Below are positions 4,216 to 64,000 of a stretch of DNA of 64,000 bases, in pieces (positions within the stretch are counted from its first letter, which is position 1; the number at the start of each line of letters is the position of its first letter). The stretch is taken from contig DEBR01000003.1 in NCBI GenBank assembly GCA_002348615.1, positions 12,268-76,267 of the forward strand, given 5' to 3'. Under the pieces are notes generated by a model. The model saw only the letters and a list, made by a program, of their open reading frames with translations, ran no database searches and had not been told where the DNA came from. The DNA is from Candidatus Saccharibacteria bacterium UBA2951. Its GTDB lineage: Bacteria; Patescibacteriota; Saccharimonadia; Saccharimonadales; Saccharimonadaceae. A program made the position numbers and the translations under genes.

Positions 4216-6159
4216 TTAGAGCAGGCTGATGGGGTCGAGTTCGAACTGCCATTTTGCTGGCGGCAGTTGACTGACGGCTTGCTGTAAATACGCGCGTTTT
4301 GGTGATTTCAGCACGAGCTGCCACCGATATTGGCCGCCGGCACGTTCATAAAATGCCGGAGTCGGGCCAAGAATCTGGACGTCGGACGGCAACGAACGCT
4401 TTAGTTGTTCGGCCAGTGCCTTGGCGTTACGGATAGCGGCCGCCTCGGTCTTGTAGGCGCACTGAAGTTTTAGCAAGTAGGTGAACGGAGGGAAGTGACT
4501 ACGGCGGCGTTGTTCCACCGCCAGGGCATAGAACCCGGCATAGTCTTGTTTAAGTCCGAGCGTAATGACGGGGTGGGTAGGTTGATAGCTCTGCACGATG
4601 ACGTTTGTATCGTGCGGGCGTCGACCGACGCGACCAATGACCTGTGCGAGTAGCTGGAAGGTTCTTTCGGCCGAACCGTAGTCGGGTAAACTGAGGCCTG
4701 CATCTGCCTGCACGACCGCGACGGTATGGAGCTTAGGGAGGTCAAGTCCTTTCGCGATAACCTGCGTGCCGATGATGACATCAATGGATCCGTCGTGAAG
4801 CTCCTTGTATCGCTGTTCAACCGTCTGGTCGCTCGCGGTGTCGCCGTCAAATCGAGCGATGGTAAGTTTAGGGTATAGCCTTTTTAATTCGCTCTCGATC
4901 AGCTTGGTGCCGATACCTTTATGAATGATACTGGCATGACCACACTGCGGGCAGCTCGTGGGGACATGTGAAGTGAAATTGCATATATGACAGCGCAGTT
5001 CGTGCGCGTCAGCATGAAGTGTAAGTGGCACGAAGCAGTTTGGACAACCAGCTTGCCAGCCGCAATTCTCGCATAACGTTGTCGGGGCACTGCCACGGCG
5101 GTTATGAAACACCAGTACCTGCTTTCCTGAACCGGTATCCTGTTCGATTTGTGCGAGTACAGCGTCGGATAAAAATCGATGTCGCTTGAAATGTGTTCGT
5201 TTGGTCATATCGATAAGTCGAACACTCGGCTTGTACGCATTTTTTATGGCGAGGTGCTCCATTGCGACAATGGGACGGCCGGTCGATTTCGCCAAATAGT
5301 AATCGACGATCGATGGCGTCGCGCTACCGAGCACGAGCTTAGCCTTGGATTGTTCAGTTAAGAAATGGGCGGCTCGCAAAGCATGATATCGAGGTGACTG
5401 CTCCTGCTTATAGCTTGGCTCGTGAGCTTCGTCGATAACGATAAGCCCCAAAGACCGTACCGGTAGGAACAGGGCCGAACGTGGCCCTATGATGACTTGC
5501 GGAGTATCAGTCATAAGCACGGTACGCCAAACCGCATGCCGTTCAGCTTCGGTCTGCCGGGAATGAGTAAGTACGACGTCCTTAAAATGAGACGAAAATT
5601 CCGCGACGACCTGCGAGGTAAGGGATATTTCGGGTACCAGTACTACGGCGGATTTACCATCCGCGAGCGCTTGTTTGACAAGTTCTATGTACACCGCGGT
5701 CTTTCCAGAACCGGTAATACCGTGAAGTATGACGGTGCCAGAGCCAGCGTTGTTAATGTCGCCCAGTGCATTCTGCTGATCGGAGTTGAGTACAATATGT
5801 GTTCGTTTATAATTATCAACAGATGAAAAGGTGGCTTTCACGCGTCGATTCTTGTGTAGTCCGCTCGGCAACAATGTTTGAAGTACGACGGCCAGCGGGG
5901 TCATGTAATAACCACTCAACCATTCGGCCAGTTGAACATATTCCTTCGGCAATGGACGGTCTTCCAGCACCTGTTCGACTGGTTTTACTACATAGTTTGG
6001 AGTGTGTTGAACAGCTTTAAGGACAAGTCCGTTCATGAGTTTTTTGCCAACACTGACACGTACCAACTGGCCAATTTCAAGCGGGTGCTCTGAAGCATAC
6101 GTAAACGAATCGGCGCCGCTACGGACGATCTGTGTCGGAGCCACCTCGTAATACTTCAT
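4216..6159 (-). CDS. priA: primosomal protein N' (replication restart helicase PriA)
   Basis: Walker A GITGSGKT, DEAH box (VIDEAHE), Cys-rich zinc module CENCGWQAGCPNC...CHICNF...CPQCG. Confidence 0.95.
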   Translation of the reverse strand: MKYYEVAPTQIVRSGADSFTYASEHPLEIGQLVRVSVGKKLMNGLVLKAVQHTPNYVVKPVEQVLEDRPLPKEYVQLAEWLSGYYMTPLAVVLQTLLPSGLHKNRRVKATFSSVDNYKRTHIVLNSDQQNALGDINNAGSGTVILHGITGSGKTAVYIELVKQALADGKSAVVLVPEISLTSQVVAEFSSHFKDVVLTHSRQTEAERHAVWRTVLMTDTPQVIIGPRSALFLPVRSLGLIVIDEAHEPSYKQEQSPRYHALRAAHFLTEQSKAKLVLGSATPSIVDYYLAKSTGRPIVAMEHLAIKNAYKPSVRLIDMTKRTHFKRHRFLSDAVLAQIEQDTGSGKQVLVFHNRRGSAPTTLCENCGWQAGCPNCFVPLTLHADAHELRCHICNFTSHVPTSCPQCGHASIIHKGIGTKLIESELKRLYPKLTIARFDGDTASDQTVEQRYKELHDGSIDVIIGTQVIAKGLDLPKLHTVAVVQADAGLSLPDYGSAERTFQLLAQVIGRVGRRPHDTNVIVQSYQPTHPVITLGLKQDYAGFYALAVEQRRRSHFPPFTYLLKLQCAYKTEAAAIRNAKALAEQLKRSLPSDVQILGPTPAFYERAGGQYRWQLVLKSPKRAYLQQAVSQLPPAKWQFELDPISLL

Positions 6160-6241
6160 GCCTACGATTATAGAGTACTTACAAAAAGAAGCTCATACGA
6201 GTCGAAGCGAGCCGCTTCTAATTATTTGTTACACTAAACAT

Positions 6242-6898
6242 ATGTATTTTGAATCGCGTGCCGATGCTGGTGCGAAGCTGGCGGCACGGCTACTCGAAAA
6301 GTACCGGTATGAAAACTGTGCCGTCGTCGCCTTATCTGACGGCGCGGTATTGGTCGGTGAACAAATCGCGGCCGCATTGCACTGTGTTCTGACCATGTTA
6401 TTGATTGAAGACATTGAAGTGCCCGGCGAGTCTATGAGCTTCGGGGGTGTGTCTGAAAGTGGTGCCTTCACGTATAACGGCATGTTCTCGGTGGGTGAAA
6501 TCGAGGAGTACACATCCGAATTCCACGGTTACCTTGATGAGAAGAAACGCGAGGCGTTCCAAGAAATCAACCGCTTACTTGGTGACGGCGGGCTGATTGA
6601 CAAAAGCCTGCTATTGGATCGAACGGTCATCTTGGTTGCTGACGGTATAGATAACGGTGCGTCGATTGACGTTGCCATGGACTTTTTGAAGCCTATCCGA
6701 ACGCAGCGGATTGTCGTCGCGACACCAGTGGCGTCAGTGCCGGCAGTCGACAAGCTGCACGTCACGGCGGACGAAATTCACATTCTTGATGTGAAAGAGA
6801 ATTACATGGGAACGAACCATTACTATACCGATAATACGGTCCCGTCGCATGAGGATACGATCGCCAAGATCAACCAGATCGTCTTGAACTGGCAATAG
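6242..6898 (+). CDS. phosphoribosyltransferase-family protein
   Basis: PRT-like acidic loop VILVADGIDNGASIDVA. Start moved to the ATG at 6242 (MYFESRADAG...) because the 6158 ORF start would overlap the priA start region. Confidence 0.6.
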   Translation: MYFESRADAGAKLAARLLEKYRYENCAVVALSDGAVLVGEQIAAALHCVLTMLLIEDIEVPGESMSFGGVSESGAFTYNGMFSVGEIEEYTSEFHGYLDEKKREAFQEINRLLGDGGLIDKSLLLDRTVILVADGIDNGASIDVAMDFLKPIRTQRIVVATPVASVPAVDKLHVTADEIHILDVKENYMGTNHYYTDNTVPSHEDTIAKINQIVLNWQ

Positions 6899-59111: not shown

Positions 59112-60404
59112 GTGAAGCATACGACACAAGAAGTACGACTAAAAAACGGCGCGCGCGGCCTGCTGGTTGATATTCCTGGCGCGACCGTCATGAGTTTCCA
59201 GTTCCAGTTCCGCGCCGGTAACCGCTACGTTAAACACAAGGACATTTACGAGACGGCGCACATCATGGAACACATGGCGTTCGGTGCCAACGCGCAGTTT
59301 AAGAGTGAGCATGAATACGAGGCCGAGTTTACCAAGAACGGCGCGTATCATAATGCCTTCACGAGCGACCTTTCAATGGTGTATATCGCTGATTGCGCCG
59401 ATTTTGAATGGGACCGGATACTGAAACTACAGCAGGTGGCGATTTGCCAGCCGCGCTTCAACAACGCCGAGCTTGAAGCCGAAAAGGGCAATGTCCGCTC
59501 TGAACTGACCGGCTATCTGAACAATCACAGCAGGGTGCTCTGGCCTAAGATTCAGCAACTCTTAGGCGAGGACATCCTGACGTTCTGGCAGCGGTTACAG
59601 ACTATCAACAACGTAACCCTAAAAGATATTAAAGAGCACTACGCGCGGACGCACACGGCCGATAACATGCGGTTCGTCATTGCCGGCAAACTATATGGTA
59701 GAAAAAAAGAAATCATTCGCATGCTTGAAGAATGGGAGCTCAGCCCTGGCGAACGCTTTGAGGTCCCTCGGGATGAACTGTCGAGCGGTAACCCGACCAT
59801 CATCCGCCGCAAGGAAGCCAGTAATATCACGTTCGGACTGTCTATGATGGTGCCACGCGAACTTGACGACGACGAACTTGAAGCTATGAACTGCCTTGAC
59901 CATATATTGACCGGTACCATGCACTCACGTATTTACGGTGCGGCGCGCGCCAAGGGTCTGGCTTATGGAGTATTTTCAGACACGACAGCTGGGTTCTACG
60001 ATTCAAGTTGGGACTTTGGTGGGCAAGTAAACCACGAAACAGCTGACCAGCTATTCGACATCTTCGTTCGCGAAATTAACGCGGTCTGCGAAGGCAACGT
60101 CACCGAAAAGGAACTTGAAGCAGCAAAATCATACGCACTTGGCCGTTACCAAATGGGTGCACAGACCGTATCGCAGATCTCGGGCTTTTACACCAACCGT
60201 TACTTCGCAGACGGAGTCGTCAAGGAATACGAAAAGGTTCCTGATGCTATCCGTGCCGTCACGTGCGACCAGATGGTCCAAACCGCTAAGTCATTCATGG
60301 ATGCCAACACCTGGGTGCTCGCAGCGGTCAGTAGCGAAGAAAAGGATGAAATCGTCGCCCTTAGTGATAAGATGGAAACGTTATTTAAGGTAAAGGAACA
60401 GTAA
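59112..60404 (+). CDS. M16-family (pitrilysin/insulinase-like) zinc peptidase
   Basis: Inverted zinc motif HIMEH (HxxEH). Two-domain length (430 aa). GTG start. Confidence 0.85.
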   Translation: MKHTTQEVRLKNGARGLLVDIPGATVMSFQFQFRAGNRYVKHKDIYETAHIMEHMAFGANAQFKSEHEYEAEFTKNGAYHNAFTSDLSMVYIADCADFEWDRILKLQQVAICQPRFNNAELEAEKGNVRSELTGYLNNHSRVLWPKIQQLLGEDILTFWQRLQTINNVTLKDIKEHYARTHTADNMRFVIAGKLYGRKKEIIRMLEEWELSPGERFEVPRDELSSGNPTIIRRKEASNITFGLSMMVPRELDDDELEAMNCLDHILTGTMHSRIYGAARAKGLAYGVFSDTTAGFYDSSWDFGGQVNHETADQLFDIFVREINAVCEGNVTEKELEAAKSYALGRYQMGAQTVSQISGFYTNRYFADGVVKEYEKVPDAIRAVTCDQMVQTAKSFMDANTWVLAAVSSEEKDEIVALSDKMETLFKVKEQ

Positions 60405-60408
60405 CGTA

Positions 60409-61653
60409 ATGAACATAGCACTGGCCGGTTTCGGGCAAGAGGGCAGAGCGAGTTACGAGTACTGGAATACGCCCGAGAATACGTTGACCATCGCCGACGA
60501 GCGCGAAACAATTGACGGCCTGCCTGACGGAATACGCACCGTGGTAGGTGCTGACGCGTTCGCGAAACTCGGTGAGTTCGATCTTATTATCCGTTCTCCG
60601 GGTATCAATCCGAAAAAGCTGCCATATGGCGAAAAAGTCTGGAGTCCGACCAACGAGTTCTTCGTCAAATGTCCGGCGCCTATCATTGGCGTGACTGGCA
60701 CAAAAGGCAAGGGAACGACAAGCAGCCTGATCGCTAGTATCTTAACGGCTGCCGGAAAAACCGTCCATCTGGTCGGTAATATCGGTACGCCGGCGCTTAC
60801 GGAACTGCCAAAAATAAAACCGGACGATATCGTCGTGTTTGAGCTCTCGAGTTTTCAACTTTGGGACATAAAAAAGAGCCCGCAAGTTGCTGTCGTGCTC
60901 GGTATTGAACCGGATCATTTGAACGTCCACGATGCTATGGAAGATTATGTGGCAGCGAAAGCGAACATCGTCCGGTTCCAAACGGCGGATGACTTGATGG
61001 TATTTAACCGTAACAATCAGATCGCAGTTCAAATCGCCTCTCTGTCGCCAGGTCGAAAAGCGGAGTATCCATTCGAACTAGGTGATATCGTTTCGACCAT
61101 CCAACTGCCTGGCCCGCACAACGTTGAAAACGCTAGCGCGGCGGTCGCGGCCGTGCAGGATTACGTAACGGACCCCGAGGTATTGAAGCAGGGCATCAGT
61201 TCGTTCACCGGTTTGCCGCACCGAATTAAGTTCGTGCGAGAAGTCGGCGGGGTACGCTTTTACGACGACAGCTATTCGTCGGCACCGGCAGCAAGCATTG
61301 CCGCCCTGAAATCATTTAACGACCCGAAAATCATTATTCTTGGCGGGTATGAAAAGCACGCTGATTTTTCTGATCTCGCAAGTTATGTCGCAAACGACGC
61401 GACCGTTAAAAAAGCCGTACTTATAGGTCAGACCAAGAACCGCATCGCGGAAGAATTCTCACGGCAGGGTATCGCCGATGACAGGTATGTAGTTATCGAC
61501 GACACAGATTTTTCAGCCATCATCCGCCAGGCATATGAAGCGGCTGAGTCAGGCGACGTACTACTGCTTAGTCCTGGCTGCGCCAGTTTTGATATGTTCA
61601 ACAATTTTACCGAACGTGGCGACCGTTTCGTCGACATCGTGAACGACCTATGA
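60409..61653 (+). CDS. murD: UDP-N-acetylmuramoyl-L-alanine--glutamate ligase (MurD family; possibly MurD2)
   Basis: Mur ligase ATP-binding loop GVTGTKGKGTT. MurD-like N-terminal Rossmann GFGQEG. DSYSSAP C-domain. Confidence 0.85.
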   Translation: MNIALAGFGQEGRASYEYWNTPENTLTIADERETIDGLPDGIRTVVGADAFAKLGEFDLIIRSPGINPKKLPYGEKVWSPTNEFFVKCPAPIIGVTGTKGKGTTSSLIASILTAAGKTVHLVGNIGTPALTELPKIKPDDIVVFELSSFQLWDIKKSPQVAVVLGIEPDHLNVHDAMEDYVAAKANIVRFQTADDLMVFNRNNQIAVQIASLSPGRKAEYPFELGDIVSTIQLPGPHNVENASAAVAAVQDYVTDPEVLKQGISSFTGLPHRIKFVREVGGVRFYDDSYSSAPAASIAALKSFNDPKIIILGGYEKHADFSDLASYVANDATVKKAVLIGQTKNRIAEEFSRQGIADDRYVVIDDTDFSAIIRQAYEAAESGDVLLLSPGCASFDMFNNFTERGDRFVDIVNDL

Positions 61654-62933
61654 GCTACCAGTCGCCATACGCAGAATTCGTTTTTAAGCGCTACGACTAC
61701 GATAAAACAAGCGGGGTACTGACGTTTGAATACGGATTCGATGATGCGGTGCAGTTTCAAGAACGTGTACATTTTGAGACGAATGAGTCATATGACGACG
61801 CGCTTTTTGATCGAGCCGTGTTCATGGCGTTCGTACTCGCCGGCATTTCGTATTACAAATGCTACCCCACAAAAAACGTTCGGTTCGATAAACATGAAAT
61901 TACTCGCGACCAAGCCGACTTCTTTACGAACGTCTACCGAAACGGTCTTAGTCAGTTCGTGTATGAAAATGGGCTATCACCGGAAGACATCGTTACATTC
62001 AAAGCGACCACAAGTGAACTCGTCGGTCCTTTGCCGTACGGCGGCAACGGAATCATCGCCTTACAAAGCGGCGGTAAGGACTCGCTACTACTCGCTCGTC
62101 TGCTTGAAGAAAAGGGTATTGATTTTAGTCCATGGTACGTATCGCAGGTCGCGAATCATCCTACGATACTCGATAGCCTACCCGGCACACTTATTACGCC
62201 TAGGCGCGAAATTGACCGAAGCGCCCTGACGACCGAACAGGAAAAAGGAGCGTTAAACGGCCACGTGCCGGTCACATTCATCACGCTTTCGTACGCGCTT
62301 ACTGATGCGGTGCTATGCGGTAAAAACACGATACTCGCGGCGATCGGCCGAGAGGGCGAAGAACCGCACGCTTACATCGGTGACTACCCTGTCATGCACC
62401 AATGGTCAAAGACCTGGCAAGCCGAGCAACTTTACGCTAACTATCTTCGCCGTTTCGTATCGCCTGACATTCGTGTCGGGTCACCAATCCGAGGGTTTAG
62501 CGAGTTAAAAATCGCGGAACTCTTCGTGCTGCACGCCTGGGACAAGTATGGTCATAGCTTCTCTTCCTGCAACGTCGCGAATTACAAGCAGGGACATGAT
62601 AACGCGCGTCTTGCGTGGTGTGGCAATTGTCCAAAGTGCGCTAATTCTTTCCTACTGTTCGCACCGTTCGTTGAGAAAAGCGAACTGGTCGAGGTATTCG
62701 GTAAGGACCTATTCGCTGATGTAGCGCTGACCGATACGTTCAAAGGACTGCTTGGTGTGGACGGTATCATGAAGCCCTTTGAGTGCGTTGGCGAAACCGA
62801 CGAGCTTCGGTTAGCCTACCATATGGCAGTGCAGAACGACCATACGCCACTCGGGTTTGATGTTCCCACGTCCAACTACGACAAGGACCGGCTAAGCGAC
62901 GCCCAACCGTGGGCAACCCAGATGATACAATAA
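61650..62933 (+). CDS. PP-loop ATP pyrophosphatase-fold protein with a CxxCxxC zinc motif (candidate MurL-type epimerase)
   Basis: SGGKDS PP-loop (IIALQSGGKDSLLLARLL), WCGNCPKCANSF. ATGA overlap with murD. Confidence 0.6.
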   Translation: MSYQSPYAEFVFKRYDYDKTSGVLTFEYGFDDAVQFQERVHFETNESYDDALFDRAVFMAFVLAGISYYKCYPTKNVRFDKHEITRDQADFFTNVYRNGLSQFVYENGLSPEDIVTFKATTSELVGPLPYGGNGIIALQSGGKDSLLLARLLEEKGIDFSPWYVSQVANHPTILDSLPGTLITPRREIDRSALTTEQEKGALNGHVPVTFITLSYALTDAVLCGKNTILAAIGREGEEPHAYIGDYPVMHQWSKTWQAEQLYANYLRRFVSPDIRVGSPIRGFSELKIAELFVLHAWDKYGHSFSSCNVANYKQGHDNARLAWCGNCPKCANSFLLFAPFVEKSELVEVFGKDLFADVALTDTFKGLLGVDGIMKPFECVGETDELRLAYHMAVQNDHTPLGFDVPTSNYDKDRLSDAQPWATQMIQ

Positions 62934-62938
62934 GGGTA

Positions 62939-64000
62939 ATGCAACCCCTTGAAAAACGTGCCCAGGCGCTAAAAGAAGCAATCGACCAGGCGATGGCGCG
63001 CTTAGACGTGGCTGGAAAAGCCGAGCGGCTGCAAGCAGTCGACGCACAACTAGCCATTCCCGAAGTCTGGAACAACCCGGCGCATGCGCAGGAACTAAGC
63101 AAGCACTCAGCCGGGCTCCGGGCAGTCGTTGAACCATGGCAAACGCTTCAGGCACAGGTGGCCGATATCGTCGAACTTATGCAGATGGGCGACGAATCAA
63201 TGCAGGCCGAATTCGACTCGCAGCTCACCGCGCTCGAAGCCGAACTCGCGTCGCGCAAAAAAGACTTACTCTACGGTGGCCCTTACGACGACCACGACGC
63301 GATCCTGCGTATTACCGCGGGTGTCGGCGGTACCGACGCGCAGGACTGGGCCGAAATGCTGGAACGTATGTACCTACGATGGGCCGAAAAAGCCGGCATG
63401 AATGTCACGACGGCCGAGCGCTCCACCGGCGAAGAAGCTGGTATTAAGACCAGCGTGCTTGAAGTCAGCGGACCATTCGCCTACGGTAAGCTTAAAAGCG
63501 AACATGGCGTTCACCGCCTCGTGCGCCTCAGTCCGTTCAATTCAGACAATCTGCGTCAGACCAGCTTCGCGTTAGTCGAAGTGCTACCAAATATCGACGC
63601 GCCGGACGACGTACAGATTGATGAAAAAGACCTAAAAATCGATGTCTACCGAGCCGGCGGCCACGGTGGTCAGTCGGTTAATACTACCGACTCTGCTGTC
63701 CGAATCACGCACTTGCCGACAAACACGGTCGTCGCGATTCAGAACGAACGTTCGCAGCTACAGAACAAAGAAACCGCCATGCGTATTCTTCGCTCGAAAC
63801 TCGCCCAGCTTCAAATGGAACAGCACGCCGAATCCCTCAGCGACTTGAAGGCAGGGGAGTCGGCTAACTGGGGCTCGCAAATCCGTAACTACGTACTGCA
63901 CCCGTATACGCTCGTCAAAGACACGCGTACCAAATATGAAGACAAGGACGCTGGGAAGGTGCTCGATGGCAAACTTGATGGCTTCATGACCAGCTATCTT
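62939..64000 (+). CDS. prfB: peptide chain release factor 2 (3' end beyond the window)
   Basis: My own translation from the ATG at 62939 is open to the window end (354 codons). SPF tripeptide (RLSPFNSDN), GGQ ([11 protein letters not shown]). Continuous frame with no internal TGA. Confidence 0.93.
   Translation, partial: MQPLEKRAQALKEAIDQAMARLDVAGKAERLQAVDAQLAIPEVWNNPAHAQELSKHSAGLRAVVEPWQTLQAQVADIVELMQMGDESMQAEFDSQLTALEAELASRKKDLLYGGPYDDHDAILRITAGVGGTDAQDWAEMLERMYLRWAEKAGMNVTTAERSTGEEAGIKTSVLEVSGPFAYGKLKSEHGVHRLVRLSPFNSDNLRQTSFALVEVLPNIDAPDDVQIDEKDLKIDVYRAGGHGGQSVNTTDSAVRITHLPTNTVVAIQNERSQLQNKETAMRILRSKLAQLQMEQHAESLSDLKAGESANWGSQIRNYVLHPYTLVKDTRTKYEDKDAGKVLDGKLDGFMTSYL

Follow-up and report, generated by a model that had tools for sequence, protein, structure and literature searches.

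A MurL homologue overlapping murD in a Saccharibacteria genome points to an alternative origin of the D-glutamate in its peptidoglycan

We analyzed a stretch of 64,000 nucleotides (hereafter the window) from Candidatus Saccharibacteria bacterium UBA2951 (contig DEBR01000003.1, positions 12,268 to 76,267), in which the gene for a MurD-family ligase overlaps the gene for a protein of 427 amino acids. The analysis makes it likely that these overlapping genes constitute an alternative pathway of the MurD2/MurL type, by which the stem peptide of peptidoglycan receives its D-glutamate (D-Glu), with L-glutamate (L-Glu) being added by the ligase and then epimerized by MurL. An earlier note, written from the DNA letters alone, had proposed this route, which is now supported by the homology of the 427-amino-acid protein to MurL, by its PP-loop fold and by the absence of the glutamate racemase gene murI.

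Sequence comparison establishes that the 427-amino-acid protein is a full-length homologue of characterized MurL. It matches the NCBIfam model NF041275 (MurL) with an E-value of 1.2e-71 and a score of 241.6 bits, the alignment spanning positions 9-394 of the 447 in the model, and BLASTP aligns it with the MurL of Xanthomonas sacchari at 32% identity over 391 amino acids (E 2e-50). The reference MurL/MurD2 pair was taken from one X. sacchari record, the MurL of which reaches 836.5 bits on NF041275. A Pfam scan of the window protein returned noise only (B3 and Hyphal_reg_CWP), the scanned library being without PF26298 and PF26299, the two families carried by its close homologues in a large protein collection. 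All these close homologues belong to Candidatus Saccharibacteria or Saccharimonadales, and some are already named as this epimerase by JGI. An exhaustive HMMER search retrieved 2,118 representative clusters with E <= 1e-3, of which 622 also passed E <= 1e-30, with named family members in Thiotrichales, Sericytochromatia, Zambryskibacteria, Hyphomicrobiales and Rhodospirillaceae. Many MurL homologues bear the NCBI pipeline label "endonuclease domain-containing protein", which is probably a propagating annotation error. Homologues were also observed on mobilizable actinomycete plasmids of Pseudonocardia, namely L131 (pLS1-1, 4878-6287) and two others, all labeled "hypothetical protein" and 31-34% identical to proteobacterial-type MurL; these copies are orphans, with no murD listed beside them in the PLSDB gene table, which is incomplete.

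In the window genome (832 kb in 5 contigs, 99.59% complete), glutamate racemase was found neither with TIGR00067 or Pfam Asp_Glu_race nor by tblastn with the MurI proteins of E. coli and of a member of the same genus, and there is no class-IV aminotransferase (Aminotran_4), the family of D-amino-acid aminotransferases. The same tblastn search finds murA, murB, murC, murD, murE, murF, mraY, murG, ftsW, ftsI and ddl, and the window murD is the only match of the genome over the TIGR01087 cut-off. The earlier note expected an organism without MurI, and neither murI nor a D-amino-acid aminotransferase is present in this nearly complete genome. It had also named what would speak against its proposal, a normal murI together with a 427-amino-acid protein dissimilar to MurL (for example a tRNA-modification enzyme); the genome and the protein differ from that description on both counts.

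Of the functional evidence gathered here, the strongest is that murI and murL alternate repeatedly across several families and never co-occur. The class Saccharimonadia was sampled evenly, with 151 genomes. With MurL matches accepted at E <= 1e-10 and strong MurI matches at E <= 1e-20, 34 genomes carry MurL, 40 a strong MurI and none both, an exclusion for which kinship among the genomes makes any P-value unreliable. Six of the MurL-positive genomes have racemase-like matches, all weak (25-41 bits). The family of the window genome comprises 7 MurL-positive and 14 MurI-positive members, both states occurring within the genera g1 and g3, and the only other genome of the window's own genus, G110, possesses murI and lacks murL. 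The exchange takes place at a conserved locus, M16 peptidase - murD - X - prfB, where X is murL in the window genome and murI, on the opposite strand, in G110, G026, G125 and G077. In this class, the MurL route stands in for glutamate racemase, one gene being exchanged for the other at an unchanged chromosomal position. Such mutual exclusion and same-locus swapping are predicted by functional equivalence of the two genes, and not by an accessory role of MurL. A third D-Glu gene was sought at the murD locus of genomes devoid of both murI and murL; the site is empty there, and in G080 murD is directly followed by prfB.

The exchange of partner is accompanied by divergence of MurD itself. Between the window genome and G110, the M16 peptidases are 88% identical and the release factors 2 (RF2) 77%, with only 55% for MurD, whereas the murL-linked MurD of L012, at equal organismal distance (89% for the M16 peptidase), is 65% identical to that of the window. 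The excess divergence between the window and G110 enzymes maps to residues 241-414, a stretch containing the C-terminal domain that binds glutamate. Recombination with a breakpoint within murD was considered, residues 61-180 being 70-90% identical to those of G110 and the rest 33-50%, but this idea was weakened by the finding that residues 61-180 are a conserved core everywhere. What remains is that, among organisms equally far apart, the C-terminal domain has diverged more when the partner types differ.

The association of the two genes extends well beyond the window. The comparison covered 80 related loci, taken from species-representative genomes that all bear the name Saccharibacteria in their titles. 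Of these loci, 78 hold upstream DNA, and in every one of the 78 murD immediately precedes the murL homologue, so that the pairing is not due to chance; the two genes overlap by 4 nucleotides in 55 of 74 loci. Fusion proteins of 800-880 residues exist in both orders (8 MurD-MurL and 11 MurL-MurD examples were read), and the sampled class contains one fused gene, G061:C1:524803-527265, with an open frame of 899 amino acids. Two genomes of the sample show other arrangements. In G007, an alanine racemase gene adjoins murL on the opposite strand (G007:C14:9987-12365), and murD, with a murL-type pocket, is on another contig. In G094, murL is on one contig (L113) and a MurD with a canonical pocket, encoded at G094:C23:5104-6366, clusters with murI-linked enzymes; this genome may carry two MurD types, and its sole racemase-like match is weak (41 bits).

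The earlier note could not verify whether MurL is itself a PP-loop protein, and the predicted fold answers that it is. The two motifs on which that note relied, a textbook PP-loop SGGKDS and a QueC-like WCGNCPKC, are both present, the fourth Cys of the latter cluster being C307 in FSSCN. An AlphaFold2 model computed from 30 homologues has a mean predicted local distance difference test score (pLDDT) of 94.5 and a predicted template modeling (TM) score of 0.92, and SGGKDS follows the strand formed by residues 135-138. Foldseek comparison with the PDB places QueC on top (2pg3, E 9.7e-5; 3bl5, E 3e-4; probability 1.0, target TM 0.59-0.63), followed by QatC, YcfA, Cap9, TtuA, TrmU, argininosuccinate synthase (ArgG) and GMP synthetase (GuaA). 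With the exception of YcfA, we take all of these to be PP-loop ATP pyrophosphatases. Sequence-based searches of the PDB, with the single protein or with a 30-sequence profile, gave no match. No QueC or other PP-loop family of Pfam or NCBIfam matches the protein, only MurL does, and hhalign against E. coli QueC aligned 22 columns, those of the PP-loop, with a probability of 4%; the relationship with QueC is hence one of fold. The N-terminal domain of about 130 amino acids was rightly called unfamiliar, since it has no Pfam match and a fold search of the PDB gave no significant match (best E 0.03), although modeled alone it reaches a pLDDT of 92.6. Our guess is that this domain binds the substrate.

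Residue conservation was computed from 231 diverse members of the MurL family. GGKDS (G141-G142-K143-D144-S145) is invariant, and 48 positions are at least 93% conserved with the residue found in the window, including GGKDS, H205, H250/K254, the four Cys and C379. Other invariant or nearly invariant residues are R186, H205, H250-Q251-x-S253-K254, R281, S306-C307-N308, W323-C324-x2-C327-x-K329-C330, K375-P376-x2-C379 and E385, to which the N-terminal domain contributes the invariant G65, S67, Y68, K70, G99 and N107. Each Cys of the four-Cys cluster is kept in at least 98% of the members, with the spacing C-x16-C-x2-C-x2-C in MurL versus C-x8-C-x2-C-x2-C in E. coli QueC. By analogy with QueC, this cluster most likely holds a structural zinc, an Fe-S cluster being the alternative. 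C379 is kept in 231 of 231 members.

The identification of the ligase as a MurD2 stands in part: it is indeed a MurD-family ligase coupled to MurL, but it is not an orthologue of MurD2 and is devoid of both specificity residues. Its architecture is that of MurD, with Mur_ligase_M and Mur_ligase_C over the Pfam cut-off and MurD-like_N at 24.7 versus 27 bits. The TIGR01087 scores (298 bits for the Xanthomonas enzyme, 313 for the window MurD and 339 for a murI-linked MurD) indicate that this hidden Markov model fails to tell the types apart. T321, K348, S415 and F422 of E. coli MurD bind the carboxylate groups of D-Glu (PMC3527612). In the MurD2 of Xanthomonas oryzae pv. oryzae, the exchange E197D/R358K (E. 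coli D182 and K348) yields a D-Glu ligase, whereas P433 and F435 are neutral (PMC8788868). The Glu/Arg determinants were looked for in the window MurD and are absent, Asp169 and Lys316 standing in their place (Table 1), so that its L-Glu specificity is deduced from context and not from a sequence signature. The window enzyme has Phe (F394) like MurD2 and A392, not Pro; Phe is also found at E. coli L416 in the murI-linked MurDs of the class and hence does not discriminate. The substitution K319T allows E. coli MurD to accept L-Glu (PMC8788868). Loss of K319 was accordingly considered as a MurD2 marker and rejected, this residue being missing in all murL-linked MurDs but also in the murI-linked ones of the class.

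Comparison of the alignment columns of 40 murL-linked and 17 murI-linked MurDs identified E. coli T321, N322, S325 and F422 as the best-separating positions, and the window enzyme carries the murL-linked set (Table 1). The murL-linked MurD of L056, nested among murI-linked enzymes, is changed at E. coli 322, 325, 348 and 422. A careful maximum-likelihood tree of 66 MurDs of the class places the window enzyme in a clade of four murL-linked enzymes (support 100/99) and the G110 MurD elsewhere, while a quick tree places the latter in a starred clade dominated by murI-linked enzymes. On the careful tree, the partner type (murL or murI) requires four changes, and an approximately unbiased test rejects a tree on which murL-linked and murI-linked enzymes part only once (difference in log-likelihood 228), so that at least three or four switches of partner have taken place in the class. 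"MurD2" would therefore be, in this class, a functional state reached independently and not a clade. We infer that the use of L-Glu by MurD was reached more than once, by different residue sets. For the window enzyme, a preference for L-Glu is probable in view of its MurL partner, the absent MurI and the altered pocket (S291, A292, A295 and F400).

Table 1. Residues of the MurD glutamate pocket, by E. coli position; "neither" denotes MurDs of genomes with neither murI nor murL
E. coli residue	X. sacchari MurD2	Window MurD	murI-linked and "neither" MurDs	murL-linked MurDs
D182	E206	D169		
K319	I339	Y289		
T321	T341	S291	T	S or V (S 37/40)
N322	T342	A292	T, N or H	A, S, Q or V
S325	A345	A295	S or T (one A)	A 40/40
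K348	R367	K316		
A414	P443	A392		
L416	F445	F394		
F422	Y451	F400	Y	F 38/40

Several observations weigh against the assignment of these genes to the MurD2/MurL-type route. The NF041275 score of the window MurL is far under the equivalog cut-off of 700 bits, a threshold tuned to Xanthomonadales that none of ten other non-Xanthomonad relatives attains either (305-422 bits). The Saccharibacterial MurL subfamily is changed at two nearly invariant positions, family E233 and N249 being G and M in the window; its SNExSA segment is rewritten, and it is 27-36% identical to the rest of the family. On the side of the ligase, D169 and K316 occupy the positions of the Xanthomonas Glu and Arg, and the identity to X. 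sacchari MurD2 is about 33%, versus 31% to E. coli MurD. In the MurL-MurD fusions the canonical T-T-S is retained, as are R348 and P414. The pocket signature relies on three independent contrasts, in which positions 322 and 325 follow the partner in 3/3 and positions 321 and 422 in 2/3, and with only three contrasts it cannot reach significance. Finally, about 32 MurD-positive genomes of the class sample, roughly one third of those encoding MurD, have neither murI nor murL, and most of them, as well as the window genome, also lack alanine racemase, which suggests that these epibionts may obtain some D-amino acids by other ways.

The supply of D-amino acids is a wider question in this class. 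The window genome has no match to alanine racemase (Pfam Ala_racemase_N), though ddl and murF are present, and only 16 of the 151 genomes encode this enzyme, which leaves the source of D-Ala in most Saccharimonadia unaccounted for. Together with the genomes having neither murI nor murL, this points to unrecognized sources of D-amino acids in the group. Examples with a clear murD and neither of the two genes are G050, G080, G092 and G122 (L104, L106, L115), whose MurDs display the canonical T-T-S/T...Y pocket; such genomes may rely on scavenged D-Glu or on an unrecognized enzyme.

Three other explanations were weighed. The first is that the window MurD is still a D-Glu ligase, fed by D-Glu scavenged for instance from the turnover of the host wall, with the MurL homologue in an accessory role such as the rescue of precursors mis-ligated with L-Glu or, by way of its QueC-like activation of carboxylates, a different modification, for example amidation of the stem glutamate. 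It can call on the Asp/Lys found at both positions that set L-Glu use in Xanthomonas MurD2, on the lack of alanine racemase despite ddl in the window genome and most of the class, on the third of MurD-positive genomes without murI and murL, and on the established chemistry of QueC, which makes an amide from a carboxylate and goes on to a nitrile. We nevertheless regard it as unlikely, because murL and a strong murI are never found together in the 151 genomes and swap at the same locus within a genus, because fusion of MurL and MurD in both orders indicates consecutive steps, and because the murL-linked pocket differs from the T-T-S/T...Y of murI-linked and "neither" MurDs.

According to the second explanation, the subfamily is a functional variant of the MurL system that epimerizes a different amino acid or acts at another stage, for instance once the precursor carries a tripeptide or pentapeptide. 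The low identity to the rest of the family, the loss of E233 and N249 and the rewritten SNExSA segment would be compatible with such a shift, which is nonetheless very improbable given that the coupling and the fusions involve MurD specifically, and not MurE or MurF, and that the complementarity is with glutamate racemase. The third, a QueC-like or tRNA-modifying PP-loop enzyme foreign to cell-wall synthesis whose overlap with murD would be incidental packing, finds some support in the PP-loop, the QueC-type Cys cluster, the best fold match and the tight packing of the whole stretch, but is hardly credible for a protein matched by the MurL family only (hhalign to QueC being confined to 22 columns at 4% probability), paired with murD in 78/78 loci, fused to MurD and anticorrelated with murI.

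For the MurD2/MurL-type route, the fold suggests a mechanism. QueC activates a carboxylate by adenylation, and adenylation of the terminal α-carboxylate, as proposed for MurL, is therefore compatible with a QueC-like fold. The window MurD would first add L-Glu, and the QueC-like PP-loop domain of MurL, modeled as an adenylating fold, would then adenylate the terminal α-carboxylate, ATP being converted into AMP and pyrophosphate. This activation would render the α-proton acidic, either directly or via cyclization with the carbonyl of Ala to a 5(4H)-oxazolone. C379, H205, H250 and K254 are candidates for taking the proton off and adding it back on the opposite face, after which hydrolysis would free the product. 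The reaction would be one-way if only the L-epimer is adenylated. According to reviews, the enzymes of Xanthomonas, Micromonospora and Salinispora consume one ATP, form AMP and work from L to D only (PMC8788868, PMC5808125).

Combining these elements, we put forward, tentatively and with slightly less than even confidence, a joint proposal. In Saccharimonadia, murI and murL would have flipped repeatedly at one fixed locus next to murD, even inside a genus, each flip to murL being accompanied by a convergent rewriting of the MurD pocket (T321/N322/S325/F422 to S/V, A, A and F) that differs from the Glu/Arg solution of Xanthomonas. L-Glu specificity would thus have evolved more than once, and MurL would be a QueC-like carboxylate adenylase with an additional, invariant Cys as the base of epimerization.

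Within the window, secA, an M16 peptidase gene, murD, the murL homologue and prfB form a tightly packed run on one strand (Table 2). The ATGA overlap of murD with the 427-amino-acid frame is present as the earlier note had read it and suggests translational coupling. A scan of the locus for promoter and terminator consensus sites found them no more frequent than in shuffled sequence. The G+C content of murD and murL (0.51-0.52) equals the window mean (0.518), giving no sign of recent foreign origin. The dcw (division and cell wall) cluster of the window genome (G000:C1:108295-113399) contains contiguous ftsI, mraY, ftsW and murG, with murD not in its usual place but about 36 kb away, flanked by the M16 peptidase gene and prfB; murI-type relatives have murD relocated in the same way. 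prfB is one continuous frame from its ATG (62939-64000), without a programmed +1 frameshift site.

Table 2. Genes and motifs of the murD-murL locus, in window coordinates
Feature	Position	Strand	Remarks
Peptidase M16-family gene	59112..60404	+	Pfam Peptidase_M16 and M16_C; upstream neighbor kept in relatives
murD-family ligase, 414 amino acids, probably L-Glu-adding (MurD2-type)	60409..61653	+	TIGR01087 313 bits vs cut-off 212
MurD P-loop GTKGKGTT (ATP-binding), residues 97-104	60697..60720	+	aligns with E. coli MurD GSNGKST
MurD glutamate-pocket loop DDSYSSAPAAS, residues 286-296	61264..61296	+	Y289/S291/A292/A295 = E. coli K319/T321/N322/S325
MurD GGYEKHADF, residues 312-320	61342..61368	+	K316 = E. 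coli K348; Arg in Xanthomonas MurD2 (PMC8788868)
MurD SPGCASFDMFNNF, residues 388-400	61570..61608	+	A392/F394/F400 = E. coli A414/L416/F422
ATGA overlap, murD stop / murL start	61650..61653	+	TGA 61651-61653, ATG 61650-61652
murL homologue, 427 amino acids	61650..62933	+	NF041275 match, X. sacchari MurL identity, AlphaFold model
MurL N-terminal domain, residues 1-130: three-strand meander and helices	61650..62039	+	
MurL PP-loop SGGKDS, residues 140-145	62067..62084	+	ATP pyrophosphatase signature
MurL NGHVP motif, residues 203-207	62256..62270	+	H205 invariant, candidate catalytic residue
MurL HQWSKTW motif, residues 250-256	62397..62417	+	H250/Q251/S253/K254 invariant; candidate catalytic or substrate-binding residues
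MurL four-Cys cluster: C307 (FSSCN), C324, C327, C330 (WCGNCPKC)	62559..62639	+	putative structural zinc, as in QueC
MurL WCGNCPKC, residues 323-330	62616-62639	+	read from sequence
MurL KPFECVGE motif with C379	62772..62795	+	outside metal cluster; candidate general acid/base
prfB (release factor 2)	62939..64000	+	downstream neighbor kept in relatives

The MurD-MurL pathway is already known, and names in NCBIfam, Pfam and JGI cover the family. What the analysis adds is the strict alternation of murI and murL at one locus within the class, a MurD pocket signature distinct from that of Xanthomonas and a mechanistic proposal at the residue level. A name can now be given to the gene that follows murD, and the annotated substrate of murD would need correcting. 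Pipelines call murD a D-glutamate ligase and its partner hypothetical or "endonuclease domain-containing". The route explains how this lineage of Saccharibacteria would have a wall containing D-Glu without glutamate racemase, which bears on metabolic reconstructions of epibionts of the Candidate Phyla Radiation (CPR). To our knowledge, MurL is the only ATP-consuming peptide epimerase known, and the QueC-like PP-loop model together with a few invariant residues offers a concrete, testable mechanism for it. The alternation of murI and murL, with matched MurDs from near relatives, also constitutes a natural experiment on D- versus L-Glu specificity in an enzyme that is an antibiotic target.

Among known systems, the closest is the MurL/MurD2 pair of Xanthomonas, whose MurL shares with the window protein the motifs GGKDS, GH.P, HQ.SK, SCN, WC..C.KC and KP.EC.G and is likewise encoded beside a murD-family gene. 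The gene order differs, murD preceding murL in the window and following it in Xanthomonas, and the PP-loop reads SGGKDS in the window versus GGGKDS in Xanthomonas. The window MurD and X. sacchari MurD2 both have Phe at the position of E. coli L416 and Ala at that of S325, whereas Ala392 of the window stands where Xanthomonas MurD2 has Pro433. Orthologues in Micromonospora and Salinispora have been assayed (Feng et al. 2017, as reviewed in PMC8788868 and PMC5808125), and these reviews describe a distribution limited to Xanthomonadales, Micromonosporaceae and a small number of Alphaproteobacteria, orthologues in other groups being of low similarity. The window host, a Saccharibacteria (CPR) epibiont, is outside that distribution. 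The openly searchable literature contains no mention of MurL in Saccharibacteria nor of a PP-loop fold for MurL, which it describes as a protein that "lacks known conserved domains".

QueC, QatC and Cap9 resemble MurL in the fold of residues ~130-370, in a SGGxDS PP-loop and in a C...CxxCxxC arrangement after the core, and QueC starts by adenylating the carboxylate of its substrate with release of AMP, as proposed for the window MurL. Unlike QueC, MurL possesses an extra N-terminal domain and a C-terminal helical region with the invariant Cys379, and the outcome is epimerization instead of the formation of an amide or nitrile. Glutamate racemase activity has been reported in Candidatus Saccharimonas aalborgensis (Penalver et al. 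2024, as cited in PMC11974145). The MurI of Saccharibacteria is an unrelated, cofactor-independent racemase acting on free glutamate, which supplies the same D-Glu residue and, in relatives of the window genome, is encoded at the same locus as MurL.

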